The position numbers and the translations under genes were made by a program. Below, piece by piece: positions 46,211-64,000 of a stretch of 64,000 bases of DNA. The notes beneath the pieces are model-generated. The model searched no databases and had not been told where the DNA came from. It saw nothing but the letters and a program-made list of their open reading frames with translations. The stretch lies in the IMG/VR virus record IMGVR_UViG_2541047680_000004; one strand, given 5' to 3'. Source of the stretch: a virus. Lineage: Duplodnaviria > Heunggongvirae > Uroviricota > Caudoviricetes. Numbering within the stretch: the first letter of the stretch is position 1; each line of letters opens with the position of its first letter.

Positions 46211-48244
46211 TTACTTAACCTGGTGGCCAGGTTTAGCACCAGCATCCGGGCTTAACAGGAAGATATCTTTCCCGCCGGGGCCAGCAGCCATCACCATGCC
46301 TTCAGAGATACCGAAGCGCATTTTACGCGGAGCCAGGTTAGCCACCATAATTGTGTGACGACCAATCAGTGCCTGTGGGTCTGGATAAGCAGAACGGATG
46401 CCTGAGAAGACATTACGCTTTTCACCACCGAGATCCAGCGTCAGGCGCAGCAGCTTGTCAGAACCTTCAACAAACTCTGCGTTTTCAATCAGCGCCACGC
46501 GCAGGTCAACTTTAGCGAAGTCGTCAAAGGTGATGGTTTCCTGAATCGGGTCGTCTGCCAGTGGGCCAGTTACCGGTGCGGCTGTGGCTTTCACTTCTTC
46601 TTTGGATGCTTCCACCAGTGCTTCCACCTGTTTCATATCGATACGGTTATACAATGCCTTGAACGGATTCACTTTATGGCCCAGCAGCGGTTGCTGGATA
46701 CCATCCCAGGTCAGTTCTGTATTCAGGAATGCTTCTGCACGTTCAGTCAGTTTCGGCAGTACCGGTTTCAAGTAAGTCATCAGCACGCGGAACAGGTTAA
46801 TGCCCATAGAGCAAATCGCCTGCAGATCGGCATCGCGTCCTTCCTGCTTCGCCACCACCCACGGAGCCTGTTCATCAACATAGCGGTTAGCCAGGTCAGC
46901 CAGTGCCATGATTTCACGGATAGCTTTACCAAATTCGCGGCTTTCCCATGCTTCGCCAATCACTTCAGCGGCATCAGTAAAGGTTTTGTACAGTTGCGGG
47001 TCAGCCAGTTCGCTTGCCAGCACGCCGTCAAAACGCTTGTTGATAAAGCCTGCATTACGGGAGGCCAGGTTAACCACTTTGTTCACGATATCGGCATTCA
47101 CGCGCTGAACGAAATCCTCCAGGTTGAGATCGATATCATCAATGCGCGAAGAGAGTTTCGCAGTGTAGTAGTAACGCAGGCTGTCGGCGTCAAAATGATT
47201 CAGCCAGGTGCTGGCTTTAATAAAGGTACCGCGAGACTTAGACATCTTCGCGCCGTTCACCGTCACATAGCCATGAACAAACAGGTTGGTCGGCTTGCGG
47301 AAGTTGCTGCCTTCCAGCATTGCTGGCCAGAACAGACTGTGGAAGTAAACAATATCTTTACCGATGAAGTGGTACAGCTCGGCGGTGGAGTCTTTCTTCC
47401 AGTATTCATCGAAGCTTACGCTGTCGCCGCGCTTGTCGCACAGATTCTTGAAAGAACCCATATAGCCAATCGGCGCATCTAGCCAGACGTAGAAATATTT
47501 ACCCGGCGCGTTCGGAATTTCAAAACCGAAATACGGCGCGTCGCGGGAGATATCCCACTGTTGCAGGCCAGATTCAAACCACTCCTGCATTTTATTTGCC
47601 ACCTGCTCCTGCAACGCACCGCTGCGGGTCCATGCCTGCAACATTTCGCTGAAAGAGGGCAGATCAAAGAAGAAGTGTTCAGAATCACGCATTACCGGCG
47701 TAGCGCCAGAAACCACCGATTTCGGCTCGATCAATTCAGTCGGGCTGTAGGTCGCGCCGCAGACTTCGCAGTTATCGCCGTATTGATCCGGGGATTTACA
47801 TTTCGGGCAGGTGCCTTTCACAAAACGATCCGGCAGGAACATGCCTTTTTCCGGGTCGTACAACTGAGAGATAGTGCGATTTTTAATAAAACCGTTCTCT
47901 TTCAGGCGAGTATAGATAAGCTCAGACAACTGACGGTTCTCTTCGCTGTGCGTCGAGTGATAGTTGTCATAGCTGATGTTAAAGCCTGCGAAATCAGTCT
48001 GGTGTTCCTGACTCATTTCGCCAATCATCTGCTCCGGTGTGATACCAAGTTGCTGTGCTTTCAGCATGATCGGCGTACCGTGGGCATCGTCGGCACAGAT
48101 GAAATTAACCTCGTGGCCGCGCATTCGCTGGTAACGAACCCAGACATCAGCCTGGATGTGCTCCAGCATATGGCCGAGGTGGATTGAGCCGTTAGCGTAC
48201 GGCAGCGCGCACGTCACCAGAATTTTCTTCGCGACTTGGGTCAT
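46211..48244 (-). CDS. metG: methionine--tRNA ligase
   Basis: 677 aa from [25 protein letters not shown] (HIGH-type) with KMSKS; C-terminal tRNA-binding domain; near-identical to enterobacterial MetG as I recall it. Confidence 0.97.
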
Positions 48245-48401
48245 AGTAGGCATTACTTCTTTGTAGTGAAAAGGGGCTTGATAGTAACAAAATGGCCTTA
48301 TGTCTGCCATGTGATAACAGCATTTCTCATAAATGATTAAATGTCGCAGCTGGAGTACACTACAAGGCGACAATTGCGCAAATTAAAATAAAGGAGACGG
48401 G

Positions 48402-49502
48402 ATGAGCGAGTCCAAATCGCCGGATGCCCTGAGAGCAATGGTAGCCGGTACGCTGGCTAATTTTCAGCACCCAACCCTGAAACACAACCTGACTACGCTT
48501 AAAGCGTTACACCATGTTGCGTTGATGGATGACACACTGCATGTCGAACTAATCATGCCTTTCGTGTGGAATAAGCCTTTTGAAGACCTGAAAGAGCAAT
48601 GTAGTGGTGATCTGCTCCGTATCACTGGCGCAAAGGCTATTGACTGGAAGCTGTCGTACAACATTGCCACGCTTAAGCGCGTCAAAAACCAACCAGGCAT
48701 TAATGGTGTTAAGAATATTATCGCCGTAAGCTCAGGCAAGGGCGGTGTAGGCAAATCGTCCACAGCAGTAAACTTGGCACTGGCTTTGGCTGCTGAAGGT
48801 GCGAAAGTTGGTATTTTGGATGCCGATATCTATGGTCCATCAATTCCAACCATGCTGGGCGCGGAAAACCAACGTCCAACCTCACCGGACGGTACTCACA
48901 TGGCACCTATCATGTCTCATGGCCTGGCAACCAACTCTATTGGTTATCTGGTCACCGACGACAATGCAATGGTGTGGCGTGGACCGATGGCCAGCAAGGC
49001 GCTGATGCAGATGTTGCAGGAAACACTGTGGCCTGATCTGGACTATCTCGTTCTCGATATGCCGCCGGGCACTGGTGATATTCAATTGACGCTGGCGCAG
49101 AACATTCCTGTAACTGGTGCGGTTGTGGTAACTACGCCGCAAGACATCGCGCTGATCGATGCGAAGAAAGGCATTGTGATGTTCGAAAAAGTCGAAGTGC
49201 CGGTACTAGGTATCGTCGAAAACATGAGTGTGCATATTTGCAGTAACTGCGGTCATCACGAGCCAATTTTTGGCACCGGTGGCGCACAGAAACTGGCCGA
49301 GAAATACAACACGCAGTTGTTAGGCCAAATGCCACTTCATATCTCTCTTCGTGAAGATCTGGATAACGGAACACCAACCGTTATTAGTCGTCCAGATAGC
49401 GAATTTACGGCTATTTATCGTGACCTCGCAGATCGCGTTGCTGCCCAAATGTATTGGCAAGGTGAAGTAATACCTGGCGAAATCGCATTCCGCGCAGTGT
49501 GA
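48402..49502 (+). CDS. apbC: Fe-S cluster carrier ATPase Mrp/ApbC
   Basis: P-loop SSGKGGVGKS, CxxC motif (CSNCGH); divergent from metG as in E. coli. Confidence 0.95.
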   Translation: MSESKSPDALRAMVAGTLANFQHPTLKHNLTTLKALHHVALMDDTLHVELIMPFVWNKPFEDLKEQCSGDLLRITGAKAIDWKLSYNIATLKRVKNQPGINGVKNIIAVSSGKGGVGKSSTAVNLALALAAEGAKVGILDADIYGPSIPTMLGAENQRPTSPDGTHMAPIMSHGLATNSIGYLVTDDNAMVWRGPMASKALMQMLQETLWPDLDYLVLDMPPGTGDIQLTLAQNIPVTGAVVVTTPQDIALIDAKKGIVMFEKVEVPVLGIVENMSVHICSNCGHHEPIFGTGGAQKLAEKYNTQLLGQMPLHISLREDLDNGTPTVISRPDSEFTAIYRDLADRVAAQMYWQGEVIPGEIAFRAV

Positions 49503-52475: not shown

Positions 52476-52663
52476 TAGGTAGCTCTCTCAACAACAAGCA
52501 ATTCGTCGTAGTCATAATCAGTTTCGGAACCATCCGTACCGAACAGAGTCACTTTTTCACCGTTCATCCAGAAAGATTTAACCGCACATCGTTTGCCTTT
52601 AGATGTTATGACCACATCACCTGGGGTTACATCTTCAGCGCGAACTTCTACTGTTCTCATCAT
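52475..52663 (-). CDS. hypothetical small protein
   Basis: short ORF from MMRTVEV; start uncertain. Confidence 0.3.
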   Translation of the reverse strand: MMRTVEVRAEDVTPGDVVITSKGKRCAVKSFWMNGEKVTLFGTDGSETDYDYDELLVVERAT

Positions 52664-53201
52664 GCTGACCCTCTTTGGTGAAAACGCCTGATGCAATACT
52701 GTTTATGATGCTGTCAGTACAGGGAGTAGAAAGCTGGGCATCTCCAGCTATTTTCATGACTTCGACATCCGCATATCGAATACCGAGGTGTATCAGACCT
52801 GCTATACCTGACTTAAGTCGAACATTTTCCATAAACAGATCCTTTTCCCGCTGTTTAACGGTCTCCAGCTCAACACGCAGTTTCTCAAGCGTTAGGGCCA
52901 TCTCTACGTTCTCCTGCTCAAGACGTCGGATGTGTTGCTGTCTTTTATCCAGTTCGTCCAGCAGTGCAATCACATCGGGATCACTATCATCAACTACTGT
53001 TACGCGTGATTTTTCATAATGTTCGTCTGCAAAAGTACGCCCTATCTTAAAATATCCGTCATCACCCTCACCGGAACAGGCATAAACAACATGTGCTCCA
53101 GATATGCGCTGTATTGACATTTCCTCGCCACAAACAGAGCATTTAGGCGCTGGTTTTGGTGAATAACGTTCACGTAACGTCAGGTAGTAAATCTCATTCA
53201 C
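52635..53201 (-). CDS. zinc-ribbon plus coiled-coil protein
   Basis: CSVCGEE..YACSGEG Cys pairs; central coiled-coil-like segment. Confidence 0.4.
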   Translation of the reverse strand: MNEIYYLTLRERYSPKPAPKCSVCGEEMSIQRISGAHVVYACSGEGDDGYFKIGRTFADEHYEKSRVTVVDDSDPDVIALLDELDKRQQHIRRLEQENVEMALTLEKLRVELETVKQREKDLFMENVRLKSGIAGLIHLGIRYADVEVMKIAGDAQLSTPCTDSIINSIASGVFTKEGQHDENSRSSR

Positions 53202-53653: not shown

Positions 53654-54207
53654 TACGATGCCTCTAACTTGTCTAACTCTTTCAGCCCTTCACGTACCGC
53701 GTTCACAATGCGTTCCAGATACTGGTATTTCGGGTTTGGTATCGTTGGCCAGTCGGCATACCACGGATCATCACCAAATAGATTCAGCAGTTTGTTACCG
53801 ATGCCGAGACAACAGCAGCTTTCTTTGACATCATCTGCGTTTTCCGCCTCGACCCACATTTCGCGAGCCTGTACAGCATCGATTTCTCTCTCTCTTCGTA
53901 ACTTTATGATTTCTGACTTCACGAAAAGCAGATTTGCATCGTTGTCATCGTCGACCGTGCTTAGCAGTTGAGGGTCGAAATTGTCGATTAGATAGTCGTT
54001 GCTAACTCGCTTGATGAACGTCTGCACATCATCACCGCCCATAGCAAACCAAGCCGCAGTCCACGCTTTTCCGTAGCAGGTGATGGTGATTCTTCCCTTA
54101 CCAGGTTCGTAGTTTTCAATCATCACTCGAACCGGATCGAGGCGTTCCAGATCCGTCAGCACAAAGGAAAGAACATCTATTTTTTCGACCTTCATGCAGC
54201 CTCCCAC
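53653..54207 (-). CDS. hypothetical protein
   Basis: 184-aa ORF. Confidence 0.4.
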   Translation of the reverse strand: MGGCMKVEKIDVLSFVLTDLERLDPVRVMIENYEPGKGRITITCYGKAWTAAWFAMGGDDVQTFIKRVSNDYLIDNFDPQLLSTVDDDNDANLLFVKSEIIKLRREREIDAVQAREMWVEAENADDVKESCCCLGIGNKLLNLFGDDPWYADWPTIPNPKYQYLERIVNAVREGLKELDKLEAS

Positions 54208-54833
54208 GCGCTCCAGATCAGCGATTTGTGTTTTTCATAACGTTTGATGTGTACCGGTTTCAGAAGCGCAATACCTTCTGTCACTTTCGCCATTGCGCTT
54301 AATAGCAACGGGTGTTCTATACCTACCCTCTCCATGTACTCGACAACATCAGCATTGGCACCAATCTCTTTGCCGTTAAAGAGTACGTCCAGCATCAGTT
54401 CTTTCTCTGCAAGGTAGATAGCTGAAAACTCAGGATCGCGACTCACGATAGAAGAGGTATTGTCCAGCAGGTCAGCCAGCTTGATCATGCGCGTCTGCAT
54501 GTTGAGATTTTGCTCCAGCTCCCGGACATTGATGATGAAACGCTGTATTCGATTGCCGTCTTCTGGCCTTGCAATGTTGGTCAGAGCCAGAACCATTTCA
54601 GCTACGCGCTCACCGAAGTGATCACGAACCATCTCTATGGTTACATTTGTGTCTTCGACCACATCATGCAGAAGCGCCGCGATCTGCATCTCCACGGTTC
54701 CGTCATGCAATGCAACGATCTCTCGGACAGCAACCGGATGATTTATATAATCTTCACCTGTATATTTTCTTTTCTGACCAACGCCACCATGAGCGCCAGC
54801 GGCGAACATATGTGCTTCGGAAATACTAGACAT
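54192..54833 (-). CDS. SpoT/RelA-like HD-domain hydrolase (small alarmone hydrolase candidate)
   Basis: YINHPVAV and AALLHDVVEDT match the (p)ppGpp-hydrolase HD signature; 213 aa, no synthetase domain. Confidence 0.75.
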   Translation of the reverse strand: MSSISEAHMFAAGAHGGVGQKRKYTGEDYINHPVAVREIVALHDGTVEMQIAALLHDVVEDTNVTIEMVRDHFGERVAEMVLALTNIARPEDGNRIQRFIINVRELEQNLNMQTRMIKLADLLDNTSSIVSRDPEFSAIYLAEKELMLDVLFNGKEIGANADVVEYMERVGIEHPLLLSAMAKVTEGIALLKPVHIKRYEKHKSLIWSAWEAA

Positions 54834-56082: not shown

Positions 56083-56100
56083 AGTAAGTATTTACCTATC
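56083..56100. promoter_or_regulatory. family-2 dyad-like motif
   Basis: AGTAAGTATTTACCTATC. Confidence 0.3.
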
Positions 56101-57784
56101 ATTTAACGCGTTTGAAAACGTATACGCTGACTGTGATCCCGGTATCTTCAAACTCGTTGGTAAACGACTTCCCTCTGGCATAAACGTAATTATCCATCGT
56201 CATCCAGTCCAGTATTGGCGCAGTGCCCGGCAATACTGCTACAAGACGCCCGCCGACTTTCAGATGCCCCAGCGCAGCCATCGTGTGCTCTCTATGACGA
56301 CCAAGCGAGTACGGCGGGTTCATAACGATTTTGTCGAACTGATAACCTGCGTTGTTCTCAGACCACTTTATGAAGTCGCAGCAAATCGTGTTCGTATACC
56401 CTTTTCCACGCAGGATATCAGCGAAGAGAGGTGCGATTTCTATGCAGGTAACATCTTCCAGATCGGCGTTAATATAGGCCAGAAGATCCCCACGTCCGGC
56501 TTGAGGCTCCAGCAGCTTCTCACCAGGCTTCAATTCAGTGGCTCTGGCAACGTACTCAGCAATCAAGCGTGGGGTAGGGTAGAACTGGTGTGATTTTGTA
56601 TCCGGTATTAATCCGGTAGCCACAATCGTATTTAGCGTATGGCCGATCTCATACGGGAACTGCCAGTGCTTTTTCTCCTGCACGCCGCCAATGAAGCTCA
56701 GTGTGCGCTCAAGCTCTTCCACCTGCGACTTCTGGAGAGCTGAATCAGAGAAGTACCATACGCCTTTGTCTTTGCTCAATCGCCCGTCACGAAGCGCAGT
56801 GCGAACCGGCACGGAGATCGTCTTCTGGATTAAACCGAACTGCTTTGGTGCCCGTGTTTTTGGCGCAGTTCGGCATGGCGCGGGGATTGCAGCAGGCATA
56901 CTGTAAGCCAGCACCTCATTCAACTTCCAGGCCACGTCAGGATGTATTTCAAAGTGAACGTTGCCGTTCTTGAACATCTTCACGCGCATCAGATTTCCAT
57001 CGACGTTCATCCAGTCACCGGTCTGGCAGTCGTTTGCCCTATACGCAGCTGATAGCACCTCAGCAGTGCGGTTGATGGTAATAAATTCTTTGTGCGCGAA
57101 GAAATGAAGCAAGACACGCAGATCGTCGATGTAGTCCTCTTTGCGATAGTTCACGCTAACGCTGTCCCGCCAGAAATCAGAAATGCAGTCAGCGATTATC
57201 AGACGCTCGCTGAAACCGTTTGTCTTATTTGTCTTGTGCGCAGGACTCAGCGCCTTAAACAAGCCATACACGCGCTCAGAGAGATATTTGTGCCTGTCAT
57301 TCAGCAAATTAAGCATCGTGGGTATGACCGTTTCTGCTTTGAACTCCGGTACACCAACGAACTCTTTAACCTTCATCTGGTAGCCTGTTCTGTCAGTTTT
57401 GATGACTTCCTGTTTGCCCTCTATAAACTGCTCGCGCCACTCATCTCGACGGGAAGCTGGCATGATCAGCAAAACGTTAGTCATGTCCGTGACCTTCCTC
57501 CAGTACTCGGCCCAAATATTCTGTTTCACCCATTCCAGATCGACTTTATCCAACCAACCTCGATTTAAACGCGAGCGATCTTCATCTGGTCGATGGTTTA
57601 GTCTCAGCAGGCGATTAATCATGTTGTGGCGTTCGTCGCCATAAACGAAGTCGTGTACCTGATACATGAAGGCGATCTCTTTCTCGCACTCGGCCACGAT
57701 TTCGTGGATGACATTCATTTCCTGACGATAGTCGATAGCCGTGTTTGAGCTGGCATCGTCGATGATAGAAAGGGCTGTATTCAT
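56099..57784 (-). CDS. N6-adenine DNA methyltransferase with large N-terminal domain of unknown function
   Basis: C-terminal motifs FYPTP, LEPQAGRGDLL (SAM-binding-like) and NPPY; about 370-aa N-terminal region without recognised motif. Confidence 0.75.
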   Translation of the reverse strand: MNTALSIIDDASSNTAIDYRQEMNVIHEIVAECEKEIAFMYQVHDFVYGDERHNMINRLLRLNHRPDEDRSRLNRGWLDKVDLEWVKQNIWAEYWRKVTDMTNVLLIMPASRRDEWREQFIEGKQEVIKTDRTGYQMKVKEFVGVPEFKAETVIPTMLNLLNDRHKYLSERVYGLFKALSPAHKTNKTNGFSERLIIADCISDFWRDSVSVNYRKEDYIDDLRVLLHFFAHKEFITINRTAEVLSAAYRANDCQTGDWMNVDGNLMRVKMFKNGNVHFEIHPDVAWKLNEVLAYSMPAAIPAPCRTAPKTRAPKQFGLIQKTISVPVRTALRDGRLSKDKGVWYFSDSALQKSQVEELERTLSFIGGVQEKKHWQFPYEIGHTLNTIVATGLIPDTKSHQFYPTPRLIAEYVARATELKPGEKLLEPQAGRGDLLAYINADLEDVTCIEIAPLFADILRGKGYTNTICCDFIKWSENNAGYQFDKIVMNPPYSLGRHREHTMAALGHLKVGGRLVAVLPGTAPILDWMTMDNYVYARGKSFTNEFEDTGITVSVYVFKRVK

Positions 57785-57796
57785 AATTACACCATT

Positions 57797-57830
57797 AAAT
57801 AATTTGTTTTCTGATTGGTGTAATTATCGC
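57797..57830. promoter_or_regulatory. family-1 operator/promoter element
   Basis: AAATAATTTGTTTTCTGATTGGTGTAATTATCGC. Confidence 0.5.
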
Positions 57831-57925
57831 AAACTTGAAAAGGCATAAAAGCTGCATTCATAGGCGTTACAGCAGATTTAAGGCGTAAAAATGGGGGCTT
57901 TCGCCCCCTGTCGACTGGTGCAGTA

Positions 57926-58492
57926 TTAGAGTGCGTATTGCGTTTTGTGCGGCTGCTTATTCAAGTCATGGCGATGCGTGAGCTCCCGCATCATGTCTTC
58001 AAGGCGACTCTTTGTGTCGTCGAGCTGGTCGGCCATTGCACCTAAAAGCTGGCGAACGGCCATCGGATCGTCGCTGTTTAGTGATGGCATTTTATAACCT
58101 GCTTTAGAAGATATAAGGTTAATTGCAGACATCAACATCGTTAGAGAGGATTTAAGCCCGGCAATTTCACGATCTTTGCTGGCAATAATCGTCTCACTTT
58201 TATTACCGTCATGAGATCCTTGAGTCTCGCTCACCATATCCAAAGTCGCTTGCAACTTATCAGCTCTCTCTTTTTCAGCAAGATAATGAACACCGAAATG
58301 ATGTGCTAAAGCTACAATCTGAGTTGGCTCTTCAAAGGTGGACTCAAAATTAAGTGCTGTAACCACTCTCTCAAATATGGAAACGTCTTCTATTCCTCGA
58401 AGAATGGCTAACATTTTGACCAGTTCATTAGCATCCATTTCTTCGAATAAGGCGTTTTGTTCATCAGCTATCGCTTTGCATTTCTTGCACAT
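57926..58492 (-). CDS. hypothetical protein
   Basis: 188-aa ORF. Confidence 0.4.
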   Translation of the reverse strand: MCKKCKAIADEQNALFEEMDANELVKMLAILRGIEDVSIFERVVTALNFESTFEEPTQIVALAHHFGVHYLAEKERADKLQATLDMVSETQGSHDGNKSETIIASKDREIAGLKSSLTMLMSAINLISSKAGYKMPSLNSDDPMAVRQLLGAMADQLDDTKSRLEDMMRELTHRHDLNKQPHKTQYAL

Positions 58493-58510
58493 GTGTTTTT
58501 CCTAATGCTT

Positions 58511-58549
58511 AAACAAGTTGTTTTCTTATTGGCTTTATTGTGATGTGGC
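58511..58549. promoter_or_regulatory. family-1 operator/promoter element
   Basis: AAACAAGTTGTTTTCTTATTGGCTTTATTGTGATGTGGC. Confidence 0.5.
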
Positions 58550-58789
58550 ATAAAAGGGGAGCAAGCTAAACGTAAAGGTGCAAACTCTCTATTTCGGTCA
58601 ACGAAACACAAGGGCCATTTGGCCCTTGTCATTAGCACTTTGCTTTACGAACTAACGGATAAGCGAAGTAGATCGCCAAACCAATGAGGACGCCATCAGA
58701 AATGACAGACATCATCTTTCCCGTAAAATCCACCAACACCGCCATCACCAGAAGAGCAATGACGATCACAAGCCGGAATCTCTCAAGCA

Positions 58790-59215
58790 TTAGAGATAAG
58801 CATCCAGTGACAACTGAAGCGCCTGGGCGATCTTTTTCAGTGCCTGCTCTTCTTGTTCACCAATGCCGTCCTGATCGGCAATATCAAGGCACAGACACAG
58901 AACATCGACCGCCTCTGGAGTACCCGCAATATCAGACAGCTCACGAATAGCCTGTGCATTAGCAGAACGAGGGGACGCTTCGTAACGAGCACGGATATTG
59001 GCGCTCATTTGGGCAATTTCACCAGCAAACGGAGAAAACGCAGGCAGAGCTGCAATTGTCTTCTCAAGAATGGCAATTTCTTTTGCGTCACATGTGCCGT
59101 CGGCATAGGAGATCATGTACGCGCCCCACACGGTGGCCTCAACCGCATCACGGTTCTCCATTTTTTTGACTTCGATAACAGCTTTACGAGTTTTCTTTTT
59201 GAAGAAACCTAACAT
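58790..59215 (-). CDS. hypothetical protein (possible TerB-like fold)
   Basis: 141 aa; loose resemblance to TerB-type pattern (YADG..E..L); weak. Confidence 0.35.
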   Translation of the reverse strand: MLGFFKKKTRKAVIEVKKMENRDAVEATVWGAYMISYADGTCDAKEIAILEKTIAALPAFSPFAGEIAQMSANIRARYEASPRSANAQAIRELSDIAGTPEAVDVLCLCLDIADQDGIGEQEEQALKKIAQALQLSLDAYL

Positions 59216-59238
59216 GTGTTTTCCTTTTATTATTTGTC

Positions 59239-59270
59239 AAAACAAGTTGTTTTCTAATTACATAAATTGC
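59239..59270. promoter_or_regulatory. family-1 operator/promoter element
   Basis: AAAACAAGTTGTTTTCTAATTACATAAATTGC. Confidence 0.5.
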
Positions 59271-59308
59271 TTACGCAGAGATGGTCAATGCATATGCACT
59301 AACAGCCG

Positions 59309-59497
59309 TCAGAAATAACCAAGTACCGAACCAACTGGAAAAACAAAAATCCCAACTACACGAGCCAAGGTCATGCCAGCCTGAAACTGGAGATCGCCAG
59401 AGCAAACAAGTTTTATAATGTTCGATACCCAACCGGCGGCCATGAGGGCAAGAATTGCCAGCCAAATTTTTCCAAAGTGATTTGAAAACCAGTTCAT
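59309..59497 (-). CDS. small membrane protein
   Basis: 62 aa with two hydrophobic helices. Confidence 0.35.
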   Translation of the reverse strand: MNWFSNHFGKIWLAILALMAAGWVSNIIKLVCSGDLQFQAGMTLARVVGIFVFPVGSVLGYF

Positions 59498-59506
59498 ACA
59501 ACCGCC

Positions 59507-60001
59507 TTAGTCACAGCATGATCCTGAGTAACTGGATGAACTTGAGGTATCGCATCCACCGCCATCCCATCCAGAGTGACAGGACGCTCCACTGGAGTGG
59601 TGGTAATTGTCGTCGACGAAGGTGTGGTGATGGATGAATCCGGCATCAAAAGGCTCTGACCGGCTGGAACGGCTACCGTCGCCAGTGAAACTATAATGAG
59701 AACGTAGGCCATTGGTTTCAGCCTCTTTCTTTGAAAATTTTCCATTCGAACTGTCCTTGTTGTTTTTCTCCTTCACTAAAGGCCGTGCATTTTTCGCTTC
59801 GCGTGAAGAACCAGAGGCAACAATCGCCCCCACGTTCGCAACAACTGACGCTTGATTATCTAAACGTTCATTCAGCAACCGAACGGTAGTCTCTAGTTCA
59901 TCAAGACGTGACATAACACGACCGCTAAATAATTCGGCCAAAATTTGACGTAAAGAACGAGGACGTTTAGTTACAGAAGTGAAATAGGTTTGACGTGCCA
60001 T
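59507..60001 (-). CDS. hypothetical protein (N-terminal coiled coil, low-complexity C-terminus)
   Basis: first about 75 aa protein-like; remainder Ser/Gly/His-rich and overlapped by another ORF with a signal-peptide-like start (59494..59745). Confidence 0.3.
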   Translation of the reverse strand: MARQTYFTSVTKRPRSLRQILAELFSGRVMSRLDELETTVRLLNERLDNQASVVANVGAIVASGSSREAKNARPLVKEKNNKDSSNGKFSKKEAETNGLRSHYSFTGDGSRSSRSEPFDAGFIHHHTFVDDNYHHSSGASCHSGWDGGGCDTSSSSSYSGSCCD

Positions 60002-60130
60002 GTGGACTCCATCCAGTGTCAGAAAGAGTTGCGGCTGGCGATTGCCAGCCGCCTTTCTCGTTCCATCCTGGAACTGTGTCTTACCGACACATTGTCATCC
60101 TGACGCCGATAAGATACATGATTTAAAATG

Positions 60131-60153
60131 ATAGGTAAACACTTACTTACTAT
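60131..60153. promoter_or_regulatory. family-2 dyad-like motif
   Basis: ATAGGTAAACACTTACTTACTAT. Confidence 0.3.
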
Positions 60154-60740
60154 TTGTTATAAACAAAACCAATATCTTTCTTGTGAGGCATATCTGCTGC
60201 TGAAAAAGCTGCGATCTTCGCGAGTCGATCACATATTTCATTTTCACGATGCCCGGCGTGACCTTTAACCCACTTCCAGCGAACATTATGTCGACTTGCG
60301 GCCTCATCCAGACGCTTCCACAGATCAACATTCTTTACCGGTTTTTTGTCAGAAGTCATCCATCCATTGCGTTTCCACCATTTCATCCACTGTGTCATGC
60401 CGTTTTTCAGATACTGGCTATCAGAGTGCAAAATAACGTTGCATGGATATTTCAAACGCTCCAGCCCGATAAGTGCCCCCATCATCTCCATGCGGTTATT
60501 GGTGGTGCTATGAAAACCATCTGAGAACTCGCGTTCCTCACCACGATACTGGAGAACGATACCGTAACCGCCCGGGCCACCCGGATTTTTAAGGCAAGAG
60601 CCATCACTAAAGATTTTCACGGTTTTAAGCTGGGGATTGAACTCTACGACAGGCGTTGTGGGATTGGTGCGGGGAGAATTTTTGTTTTTGTCTTTTTTGC
60701 GAGTTTTTGCTTGCGATCGGGCTGGTGTCTTCGTCGTCAT
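60150..60740 (-). CDS. ribonuclease H (RNase HI family) with basic N-terminal extension
   Basis: SDGSC, NNRME, HSDSQY, VKGHAGH, NE..D motifs; start set at MTTKT with RBS AGGAG. Confidence 0.8.
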
Positions 60741-60839
60741 ATAAACTCCTGAATCAAGCGCCGCGCCGATTTTTCCTCGCGCGTGCGCACACGCGTGCGT
60801 GTTAATAATTATTAAAATAAACAAATTACTTCCCAGAAC

Positions 60840-61205
60840 AGGTTTTTATAAACCTGAACTGAACGAACGAAGTGAGTGACGTTCACCTCGAACGAAGTGA
60901 GAGGTTGTCTTTTCAGGTAATACTCTCCCAGGGAGGTGAGTATAAAATTCCTCACCAACCTGGTCGTTTCATAACCTGAAAAGCTATGGTCTAAGTCTAC
61001 TGCCAGCTTAGACTTGGGAAGTTATGGATGACAGCACCCCAGAACCGAGATCTTCCCACACTTTATGAAGGGGAGTACTGGATTCAACCTCTCGAAACAC
61101 CCCAGACTCGACAATCATAAAGTGACCCTTGTCTCTGCTCACTTTGGTTCCCCCTTCCCCGACACCTATACGGCACCGGTTCTACGCTGGTAGTGAGCTT
61201 TTTTA
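60840..61205 (+). ncRNA. candidate structured noncoding RNA (antisense to flanking genes)
   Basis: ORF-free 480-bp gap; nested inverted repeats CTTTTCAGGT/ACCTGAAAAG and GGTGAG/CTCACC; duplicated GAACGAAGTGAG; plus-strand hairpin GCTCACT..AGTGAGC followed by TTTTTT at 61137-61205. Confidence 0.3.
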
Positions 61206-61321
61206 AACCTGACGCCAGTGACGCTTACCCCCACCCATCAGGTCGAGCCTCCAGTCTACGACTGGAAACTATCAGATCTTAGCACTTACAATTCACTTTA
61301 TGAATAGTTTGTACTTATCTA

Positions 61322-61576
61322 TCATTGTGATTGATTATTTTCTCGACCATGTAGTTGAACATTCAAGGCAAACACCTCATTGATCAACTCACCTAAAAGC
61401 TGTTCAACAAGTTCGCGATGCTCGCCAAGATGCAAGCACTTAATTGCCCACTCGTACAAGTTGAAAGCCTGCTCACGATCTTTCATCATTTCACGAGCCT
61501 GGGCCAGAAAATCGCTCTCTACGAGCGCAACGACATTAGTCGGGTATGACATGTTGGTTTCCTTAAAGTGGTTCAT
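61322..61576 (-). CDS. hypothetical protein
   Basis: 84-aa ORF. Confidence 0.35.
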   Translation of the reverse strand: MNHFKETNMSYPTNVVALVESDFLAQAREMMKDREQAFNLYEWAIKCLHLGEHRELVEQLLGELINEVFALNVQLHGRENNQSQ

Positions 61577-61659
61577 AAAATCGATTTTAAAGCGTCTGGG
61601 AAGGGGGTCTAGTGGATTCTGTAGTGATGTTCAGGTCTGGGAGTCTCTGATACAAAACA

Positions 61660-61716
61660 GCCTGCTTCCGTATATTAATAATTAATATGTAGTTATTTAT
61701 ATATACAGAAGCAGGC
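61660..61716. repeat. large AT-centred palindromic element, copy 2
   Basis: arms GCCTGCTTCCGTATAT / ATATACAGAAGCAGGC; GGTCTGG 19 nt upstream. Confidence 0.6.
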
Positions 61717-61738
61717 TAATTACAGACGCCAGAGCAAA

Positions 61739-62332
61739 CTAAGCAGCCTTCTTTGATGGTCTTTTTTTCCTGATCACATTCGCAGGATCATACCCTCCCA
61801 GACTTTTCATGACGTCCAAAGGGATCTTGCTTATAGAGTGCCCAGCGTCCTGACAAAACCCTCGAAAAACAACGAGCATACTGCCACCGGGGTTGATGTT
61901 TACTTCTACCTGACCCAAATTGACGTCAGGCTCGACAAACGCAACGCGGCCACCAGACAGAATAATCGTCTCATTCGCATACTCTGTTGCACGCTCATAC
62001 CACTTTGTATCGAGGGATTGAGGAATTAGCATCACTGTTGTAACTCCGCGAGCCTGCTCACGTATAGCCGCATCAATCCAGGGGGAGATTTTGGAGTAGG
62101 GTGGATTGAGGAAGGCAATTGTACCTGGCTGCCCCCATTCAGATTTCAAAGCATCGCGCTCAACGCCTATGAAAATAGGCAGCTTTGCATTGTCCTTGTT
62201 GCAGGCAACGTCAACATCAAATGTCACTCCAAGATAACGTTGAATGGCAGAAAACAGCCAATCAGGTGTTCTCCAGAGGTCACGAAGAGAGTTGTCGCGC
62301 TTTCGCTGTTTGATTTTTTCGGCTGCAATCAT
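61739..62332 (-). CDS. phage-type DNA N6-adenine methyltransferase (Dam-like)
   Basis: motifs RTPDWLF, FDVDVAC and FLNPPYS; 197 aa; no adjacent restriction partner. Confidence 0.8.
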   Translation of the reverse strand: MIAAEKIKQRKRDNSLRDLWRTPDWLFSAIQRYLGVTFDVDVACNKDNAKLPIFIGVERDALKSEWGQPGTIAFLNPPYSKISPWIDAAIREQARGVTTVMLIPQSLDTKWYERATEYANETIILSGGRVAFVEPDVNLGQVEVNINPGGSMLVVFRGFCQDAGHSISKIPLDVMKSLGGYDPANVIRKKRPSKKAA

Positions 62333-63447: not shown

Positions 63448-63486
63448 AGCCTGCTTCAAACTCTCTTTAAAGCAGGCTTTTGTTTT
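63448..63486. terminator. terminator hairpin related to the palindromic elements
   Basis: AGCCTGCTT..AAGCAGGCT stem followed by TTTTGTTTT. Confidence 0.5.
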
Positions 63487-63784
63487 ACACAATTTCAGAG
63501 GGTAATTTAAAAAATCCGTATTTATTACGTGCCTTAAAGAAGCATTGCATCATTAAGTTTGTGTCATATAAGGCACTATGTGCTTTGGCATGATCGTATA
63601 TAAAGCCAAGAGAGAAGGCCAATTCTTCAAGGCGAGGACGTTTACCGTCTTCTGTGGCCCACAATCCCGATAACATAGTATCTATAACGGGAACGTCTGG
63701 CAGTCTTACTCCATACCCTGAAAACTCGTGTCGAATAAATGGTATATCAAACGCTTCGCCGTTATGAGCAATCCACGCACTACA
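63485..63784 (-). pseudogene. DnaQ-like (DEDDh) 3'-5' exonuclease gene, 5'-truncated by IS10
   Basis: C-terminal reading frame contains HNGEAFDIPF (Exo II-like) and HSALYD (Exo III-like); reading frame runs into the IS10 end at 63785 with no Exo I region. Confidence 0.65.
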
Positions 63785-64000
63785 CTGATGAATCCCCTAA
63801 TGATTTTGGTAAAAATCATTAAGTTAAGGTAGATACACATCTTGTCATATGATCAAATGGTTTCGCGAAAAATCAATAATCAGACAACAAGATGTGCGAA
63901 CTCGATATTTTACACGACTCTCTTTACCAATTCTGCCCCGAATTACACTTAAAACGACTCAACAGCTTAACGTTGGCTTGCCACGCCTTACTTGACTGTA
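63785..64000 (+). mobile_element. IS10 (IS4 family) end, partial, continues beyond window
   Basis: sequence from CTGATGAATCCCCTAATGATTTTGGTAAAAATCATTAAG matches the IS10 terminal sequence as I recall it. Confidence 0.85.
63892..64000 (+). CDS. IS10 transposase, N-terminal fragment (partial at window edge)
   Basis: translation MCELDILHDSLYQFCPELHLKRLNSLTLACHALLD. Confidence 0.85.
   Translation, partial: MCELDILHDSLYQFCPELHLKRLNSLTLACHALLDC

Follow-up and report, generated by a model that had tools for sequence, protein, structure and literature searches.

Phages and plasmids often carry orphan methyltransferases. Their protective role has been established for phages and pESBL (PMC11541004, PMC7736820), and such genes are in general enriched in leading regions (PMC11541004). 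Here we analyzed two candidates of this kind in a window of 64,000 nucleotides (nt), the whole stretch of DNA studied from the virus record IMGVR_UViG_2541047680_000004, which matches an SSU5/pECOH89-type phage-plasmid of Escherichia coli. One gene encodes a protein of 561 amino acids (aa) with an N-terminal DUF4942 region, and the other a Dam-like protein of 197 aa. An earlier note on this DNA had called them two orphan adenine methyltransferases, and the analysis bears this out, as both proteins have the features of S-adenosylmethionine (SAM)-dependent enzymes with N6-adenine-type motifs and no restriction partner was found among the neighboring genes.

That both genes encode orphan N6-adenine methyltransferases is very probable. 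Our overall reading, to which we assign a probability of roughly 0.6, is that these solitary enzymes serve anti-restriction self-methylation and that DUF4942 is an accessory domain. The protective role proposed here is established for the other phage and plasmid enzymes cited above. The two genes and the segments of the longer protein are arranged as follows.

56099..57784, minus strand: gene of the 561-aa protein, DUF4942 plus predicted N6-adenine methyltransferase (PF13708, phrog_6263; YdiA-like name in pHCM2-type records)
57545..57784, minus strand: variable N-terminal helical segment, aa 1-80, mildly acidic, with helices 20-48 and 52-62 in the model
56885..57544, minus strand: conserved DUF4942 core, aa 81-300, helices and a small beta-sheet
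56600..56884, minus strand: variable basic linker and small alpha/beta domain, aa 301-395, candidate nucleic-acid recognition element
56102..56599, minus strand: Rossmann-fold methyltransferase core, aa 396-561, motifs X (FYPTP), I (EPQAGRGD) and IV (NPPY), no C-terminal target-recognition domain
61739..62332, minus strand: gene of the 197-aa protein, predicted phage Dam-like N6-adenine DNA methyltransferase (PF05869, TIGR01712, phrog_111)

Both open reading frames (ORFs) lie where they had been placed, on the same strand and 3955 bp apart, in agreement with the description of a separate Dam-like enzyme 4 kb away. All the quoted motifs were recovered: FYPTP at aa 401, EPQAGRGD at aa 426 and NPPY at aa 489 of the 561-aa protein, and RTPDWLF at aa 21 and NPPYS at aa 76 of the 197-aa protein. 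The order of the former three, X (F/YxTP), I (ExxxGxG) and IV (NPPY/F), is that of the gamma class.

The C-terminal 165 residues of the 561-aa protein take the class I Rossmann SAM-methyltransferase fold in an AlphaFold2 model, which was built on 28 homologues and is confident with a mean predicted local distance difference test score (pLDDT) of 82 and a predicted template modeling score (pTM) of 0.71. The nearest solved structures to this part all act on adenine N6, and the N6-adenine DNA methyltransferases M.TaqI, M.BseCI, CamA and type I HsdM are among the top structural neighbors with the highest identities. The profile phrog_6263, named 'DNA methyltransferase', matches the protein over its full length (E 2e-299), and the PADLOC DNA-methyltransferase models mad2 and MTase_II match it at 2.9e-15 and 2.3e-10. 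From these PADLOC matches and the genomic context, we infer that DNA is the substrate. Several homologues also match the Pfam models N6_Mtase or MTS at E<=0.01, the best at 7.9e-06 and 5.4e-07, respectively. Almost nothing, about 45 residues, follows the core, so a C-terminal target-recognition domain is absent.

The N-terminal part had been described as an unknown domain of 370 aa. It is indeed a large extra region, but it belongs to a named Pfam family: PF13708 (DUF4942) scores 73.9 bits on aa 140-295 against a cut-off of 25 (E 1.8e-20), matches 28 of the 28 aligned homologues and is the only family that Pfam recognizes in the 561-aa protein. The protein is 99% identical to the WP_024269809-type 'DUF4942 domain-containing protein'. 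The domain search of this region, which the earlier note had proposed, thus returned DUF4942 and no match to a known target-recognition fold. Fold comparison of the N-terminal model gave no match to a nuclease, a known target-recognition fold or a known anti-restriction protein; sequence and profile searches of the PDB with the region yielded nothing significant, and no solved structural relative of DUF4942 was found there. Literature searches on DUF4942, the SSU5 methyltransferases and phage-like plasmid methylomes returned no functional data.

An alignment of 137 family members divides the protein into conserved and variable parts, the latter being aa 1-80, 121-140, 321-360 and 521-540. The segment of aa 1-80 has a mean column conservation of 0.21-0.32, an identity of 6-16% in distant homologues and an isoelectric point (pI) of 5.2. 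The DUF4942 core of aa 81-300 is conserved as strongly as the methyltransferase core, with W95, T102, W116, R164, S180, H183, T185, N186, D221, R223, W258, D262, H277 and N289 among its near-invariant residues. Inside it, the SSU5-clade proteins have a beta-hairpin at aa 121-140 (nt 57365-57424; strands 124-130 and 136-142 in the model), where the wider family has 78% gaps. It is a clade-specific insertion within the DUF4942 region, because the wider family does not have it.

The segment of aa 301-395 is the sole basic one in the protein, with a pI of 9.7. Its conservation is 0.22-0.49, and its identity is 23-37% in homologues whose two cores are both 52-65% identical. The segment travels with the methyltransferase core in other phage proteins, because phrog_9133 aligns from aa 328 on through the core. 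As a putative nucleic-acid recognition element, this variable basic segment is the strongest candidate.

The pairing of DUF4942 with the methyltransferase core had looked peculiar from the single sequence. When aa 1-370 were searched with HMMER against 1.84 billion representative proteins, 616 relatives emerged, and the best 150 were inspected. Lengths of 480-700 aa are seen in 130 of these 150, and NPP[YFW] stands near the C-terminus in 127 of the 130 (108 NPPF and 18 NPPY); motifs X, I and IV are kept in 121-127 of the 130. Since nearly all full-length relatives share this layout, the architecture is old and stable and is no local fusion. That the two parts are joined in 127 of 130 suggests that DUF4942 and the core probably cooperate.

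DUF4942-only proteins among the closest relatives were considered as stand-alone forms and rejected; they look truncated or frameshifted, ending at the domain junction. The true stand-alone forms of DUF4942 are of the distant plasmid YgfB/YdiA type. One mosaic homologue (P0044) is 95% identical to the 561-aa protein in aa 81-300 and only 40-55% identical from aa 301 on, where it resembles Klebsiella variants. The mosaic points to recombination where DUF4942 joins the methyltransferase module.

The 197-aa protein is, by its profile matches, a routine small phage Dam-like N6-adenine methyltransferase. It reaches 129.3 bits on PF05869 (cut-off 28.1, E 1.5e-37) and 112.5 bits on the NCBIfam model TIGR01712 (cut-off 97.05), and phrog_111 matches at E 1.7e-64. 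Its motif IV NPPY at aa 76-79 (nt 62096-62107) has the (D/N)PP(Y/F) form. Relatives were found by tblastn in 1987 phage records, including Stx phages with 39% identity and many siphophages with genomes of about 50 kb. Searching the PDB by sequence and by profile brought no significant match to this protein. GATC is the specificity of characterized PF05869/TIGR01712 members, which provides a lead and not a test. Separately, a 227-aa 'DNA methylase' of IncI/IncF leading regions was tried as a relative of this Dam-like enzyme and proved unrelated.

The genes between the two methyltransferases (57926..61576, minus strand) include no restriction enzyme and are listed below together with one terminator-like element.

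57893..57908, minus strand: terminator-like GC hairpin and T-run, GGGGGCGAAAGCCCCC then ATTTTT, a consensus match only, between the upstream gene and the 561-aa gene
57926-58492, minus strand: phrog_5508, function not assigned
58632-58790, minus strand: DUF3927
58790-59215, minus strand: TerB family
59507-60001, minus strand: phrog_10411, function not assigned
60150-60824, minus strand: RNase HI
61322-61576, minus strand: ORF without assigned function

As the earlier note had stated, no restriction partner is nearby. Pfam and PADLOC scans of the neighboring ORFs detected no nuclease except RNase HI, and the annotation of the whole 111.7-kb pECOH89, which is 99.2% identical to the window, lists no restriction enzyme. 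Hence neither a nearby endonuclease gene nor a nuclease domain in the same chain was found, the N-terminal model being without a nuclease fold. Because the terminator-like hairpin precedes the 561-aa gene, this gene may have its own promoter in 57785-57892.

The element is, as judged from database matches, a well-known E. coli phage-plasmid of the SSU5 type. Records about 99% identical to the window have been in the databases since 2014, the Escherichia phages Cyrano and CMS-2020a share 97-98% identity with it, and Salmonella phage SSU5 shares about 83% across 65% of it. Matches were also found in 711 plasmid records, almost all non-mobilizable. Because of these phage and plasmid matches, the element is a phage-plasmid and not an integrated lysogen, so the word lysogen used for it earlier should be dropped. 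In pECOH89, whose annotation calls the two genes 'DUF4942 domain-containing protein' and 'phage N-6-adenine-methyltransferase', they belong to an extended run of genes on one strand, together with nrdAB and the genes for HD phosphohydrolase, RNase HI, DnaQ-like exonuclease, dihydrofolate reductase and thymidylate synthase.

Several other features of the window were recorded. The early block shared with the methyltransferases contains, besides the TerB-family tellurite-resistance-like gene (58790-59215, minus strand), an HD-domain phosphohydrolase gene (54192-54833, minus strand) and an Ead/Ea22-like gene (52635-53201, minus strand). An IS10 terminus (CTGATGAATCCCCTAATGATTTTGGTAAAAATCATTAAG) begins at 63786 in the last part of the window (63786-64000), where Rfam RNA-OUT matches 63830-63899 (minus strand, 98.8 bits). 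The insertion appears to disrupt the gene for the DnaQ-like 3'-5' exonuclease (intact in pECOH89); the remnant before the insertion sequence is only a 63-aa ORF (63485-63676). The pair 46211-48373 (minus strand) and 48402-49502 (plus strand) includes a full-length methionyl-tRNA synthetase gene (tRNA-synt_1g, E 8e-166, with anticodon and tRNA-binding domains) and, adjoining it, an ApbC/Mrp-type Fe-S cluster carrier ATPase gene (E 2e-102). Both are host-like housekeeping genes and unusual phage cargo.

The palindrome statistics of the window give no clue to methylation target sites. CTAG is scarce, with 27 observed against 82 expected (ratio 0.33), and the remaining 4-bp palindromes have ratios of 0.70 to 1.16. 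Scarcity of CTAG is usual in enterobacterial DNA, so it is not taken as a signal of restriction avoidance.

Relatives of both parts of the 561-aa protein are found on diverse mobile elements. Distant full-length homologues with 33-38% identity occur in lambdoid prophages, in the early-right operon after cro/YdaS-YdaT and replication genes, and often adjoin other solitary methyltransferases (N6_N4, C5). On IncHI2 plasmids, a homologue of 563 aa is encoded at a distance of 2 kb from a Dam-family gene. No restriction enzyme was found near the homologues in the prophage and conjugative-plasmid loci.

The DUF4942 core has tblastn matches in 3174 plasmids, 2106 of them conjugative. In IncI/K plasmids, DUF4942 forms a stand-alone protein of 282 aa, whose gene lies beside oriT/nikA; the leading region there also contains ardA, psiA/psiB, ssb and an ArdB/KlcA-like antirestriction gene. 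The PF13708 score of this protein is 169 bits, and it is homologous to aa 91-303 of the 561-aa protein (hhalign probability 98.5%, E 3.7e-15). In the IncI/K plasmid NC_025143.1 (locus L007, 6722-7570), the annotation of the leading-region side of oriT/nikA starts with its gene, and ardA and psiAB lie a few kb away.

The methyltransferase core likewise has a separate form. IncF leading regions encode a 187-aa 'class I SAM-dependent methyltransferase' that is 31% identical to the core (E 5e-15). In the IncF plasmid NZ_CP043408.1 (locus L009, 10506-12477), this minimal methyltransferase directly follows a 453-aa DUF3560 protein, and in a Paraburkholderia plasmid the methyltransferase match is inside a 'DUF3560 domain-containing protein'. 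The arrangement suggests that DUF3560 is a second accessory partner of the same core, unrelated to DUF4942; an hhalign comparison of the two domains gave a probability of 0.4%. By this distribution, both halves of the 561-aa protein are separable modules of the establishment and anti-defense gene sets of mobile elements.

Self-methylation of the element's DNA against restriction is the best reading and is plausible. In the proposed mechanism, both enzymes, encoded in the early replication and nucleotide-metabolism arm of the phage-plasmid, would methylate its own DNA soon after entry or during replication. The methylation would shield the element from cutting by the restriction systems of new hosts. 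The 561-aa enzyme would act with a minimal core that has no target-recognition domain (aa 396-520, motif order X, I, IV). The variable basic module ahead of the core (aa 301-395) probably contacts nucleic acid, and the conserved DUF4942 module that precedes it (aa 81-300) may load or target the core.

This last part, DUF4942 as an accessory domain for loading or targeting, is a tentative proposal. It can be put more widely, and just as tentatively: DUF4942 may be an unrecognized accessory module that provides the minimal core with its substrate (perhaps DNA that is entering or replicating, with relaxed specificity), or may itself be an anti-defense effector, and the 561-aa protein would then be a Rosetta-stone fusion. 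If true, the fusion would tie the abundant YdiA/YgfB leading-region proteins to DNA methylation and restriction evasion.

Several results weigh against our overall reading. The rRNA N6-methyladenine (m6A) methyltransferases METTL5, KsgA and Erm are as close structural neighbors of the 561-aa core as the DNA enzymes are, and the Pfam methyltransferase models stay below their cut-offs on the protein itself (N6_Mtase 17.4 against 20.4, MTS 14 against 23 and RrnaAD 15.4 against 24 bits). The DUF4942 core has a pI of 6.7, neither basic nor acidic, and therefore supports neither DNA binding nor DNA mimicry; a role as an enzyme or in protein binding would likewise be consistent with its strong conservation, which includes many polar residues. 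With an observed/expected ratio of 0.81, GATC is neither notably depleted nor enriched in the window, so no hint at the target of the Dam-like enzyme comes from the sequence. Moreover, the searched literature holds no methylation data on the two enzymes or on any other protein of the DUF4942-methyltransferase family.

Among the competing explanations, the one that survives best is that DUF4942 is itself an effector of anti-defense or establishment, such as an inhibitor of restriction or of an immune system, which would make the 561-aa protein bifunctional and DUF4942 no targeting domain. The company of DUF4942 agrees with this: the stand-alone form is directly beside oriT in the IncI/K leading regions with ArdA, PsiA/B and the ArdB/KlcA-like gene, and CP4-like islands have the domain as well, near YfjX/KlcA and RadC-like genes (PMC6980539). 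In a 2024 survey, two DUF4942 families, #24 and #76, are among the 100 largest leading-region-enriched families and are listed as uncharacterized (PMC11541004 and its supplement). DUF4942 is also conserved independently of the methyltransferase, with many invariant polar residues. However, it is no acidic DNA mimic by its pI, its fold matches none of the known anti-restriction proteins, and it stays attached to the core in nearly all of the full-length relatives. We therefore regard an effector function of DUF4942 as unlikely, and favor its acting with the methyltransferase.

Another explanation, which we hold to be quite unlikely, is that the methyltransferases serve the physiology of the element, that is, control of the replication origin, packaging-site recognition, lysis-lysogeny switching or gene regulation. 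The genes do share their arm of the element, that of replication and nucleotide metabolism, with RNase HI, DnaQ-like exonuclease, thymidylate synthase and nrdAB. There is also precedent, as the phage-plasmid P1 has its own Dam-type enzyme, and Dam methylation controls P1 replication and pac cleavage. A Dam-dependent prophage memory has been reported in Salmonella (PMC12455584), which counts on the same side. Yet the same gene families are spread over unrelated phages, prophages and conjugative plasmids, so that a generic protective role fits better than an element-specific function.

It is also improbable that the 561-aa enzyme is an RNA m6A methyltransferase, acting on rRNA or tRNA, that DUF4942 directs to ribonucleoprotein so as to modulate host translation or prophage induction. 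The equally close rRNA enzymes among the structural neighbors speak for it, as does a prophage 'DNA adenine methyltransferase' of another family that methylates 16S rRNA with an accessory subunit (PMC10810198). The DNA-methyltransferase profile matches and the genomic company point the other way. The NCBIfam equivalog models of rRNA adenine methyltransferases (RsmA/KsgA, Erm) score only 16-19 bits on the protein against cut-offs of 171-350.

Finally, a single-chain restriction-modification enzyme of the Type IIG/IIL-like kind with an N-terminal nuclease can be rejected with little doubt: the N-terminal domain ahead of a gamma-type methyltransferase superficially resembles MmeI or Eco57I, two phage records name a homologue 'RE endonuclease' and one homologue has a weak Eco57I Pfam match (E 0.009), but the protein has no nuclease fold and no C-terminal recognition domain.

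The finding as such is ordinary and the genes were known, since both had already been deposited, annotated and assigned to curated families. They are 98-99% identical to annotated genes in hundreds of SSU5/pECOH89-type plasmids. The main remaining interest is the role of DUF4942, which is present in more than 3000 sequenced plasmids by tblastn, two thirds of them conjugative, including clinically important plasmids and phage-plasmids. The elements concerned spread CTX-M-15 and other resistance genes, and it is of practical value to understand how they evade restriction when they enter new hosts. The fused 561-aa protein offers a simple handle on whether DUF4942 works with a methyltransferase.

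Compared with known systems, the 561-aa enzyme departs from the gamma-class enzymes in its layout. M.TaqI, M.BseCI, CamA and HsdM have their own C-terminal target-recognition domain or HsdS, whereas the 561-aa enzyme has only the short tail after its core; its extra 395 residues are N-terminal, without a fold match to any of these four, and its N6_Mtase score is sub-threshold. METTL5, KsgA/RsmA and Erm have nothing like DUF4942, and the NCBIfam scores of the 561-aa protein are at least 10-fold below the equivalog cut-offs. Identity with the rRNA methyltransferase of Stx phage was considered and rejected, that enzyme being an MT-A70 protein with DPPW.

M.EcoGIX/M.BceJIII are orphan m6A methyltransferases of mobile elements that are single-strand-specific and shield incoming DNA from restriction (PMC7736820). 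They belong to the beta class and have a DPPY motif (PMC7736820), whereas motif I precedes motif IV and the latter is NPPY in the 561-aa enzyme, which thus falls outside the beta class. Because of the different family and motif order, their single-strand specificity is not transferable to the enzymes of the window. Identity with M.EcoGII or M.EcoGIX/M.BceJIII was likewise rejected, as those are of the beta class.

The 197-aa protein is close in type to the phage Dam-like family (PF05869/TIGR01712). It passes both family cut-offs, has the N-terminal TP..LF motif and NPPY, and shares the small size, the lack of a partner restriction enzyme and the location in a phage early region. Its identity to members outside the SSU5 group is only 28-41%.

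The nearest counterparts of the two halves of the 561-aa protein are on plasmids. The 187-aa IncF methyltransferase is alike in its 31% identity over motifs X to VI, in being a minimal core without a target-recognition domain and in lying among ssb, psiB and antirestriction genes, but it is a separate polypeptide directly after a DUF3560 protein, whose domain is unrelated to DUF4942. The stand-alone YgfB/YdiA proteins (282 aa) have no methyltransferase part, are only about 18-22% identical and do not keep H183 and H281 of the fused family. They nevertheless share W95, T102, W116, Q119, T185-N186, D221, H277 and N289 with the 561-aa protein, and both are carried on mobile elements near anti-restriction genes.

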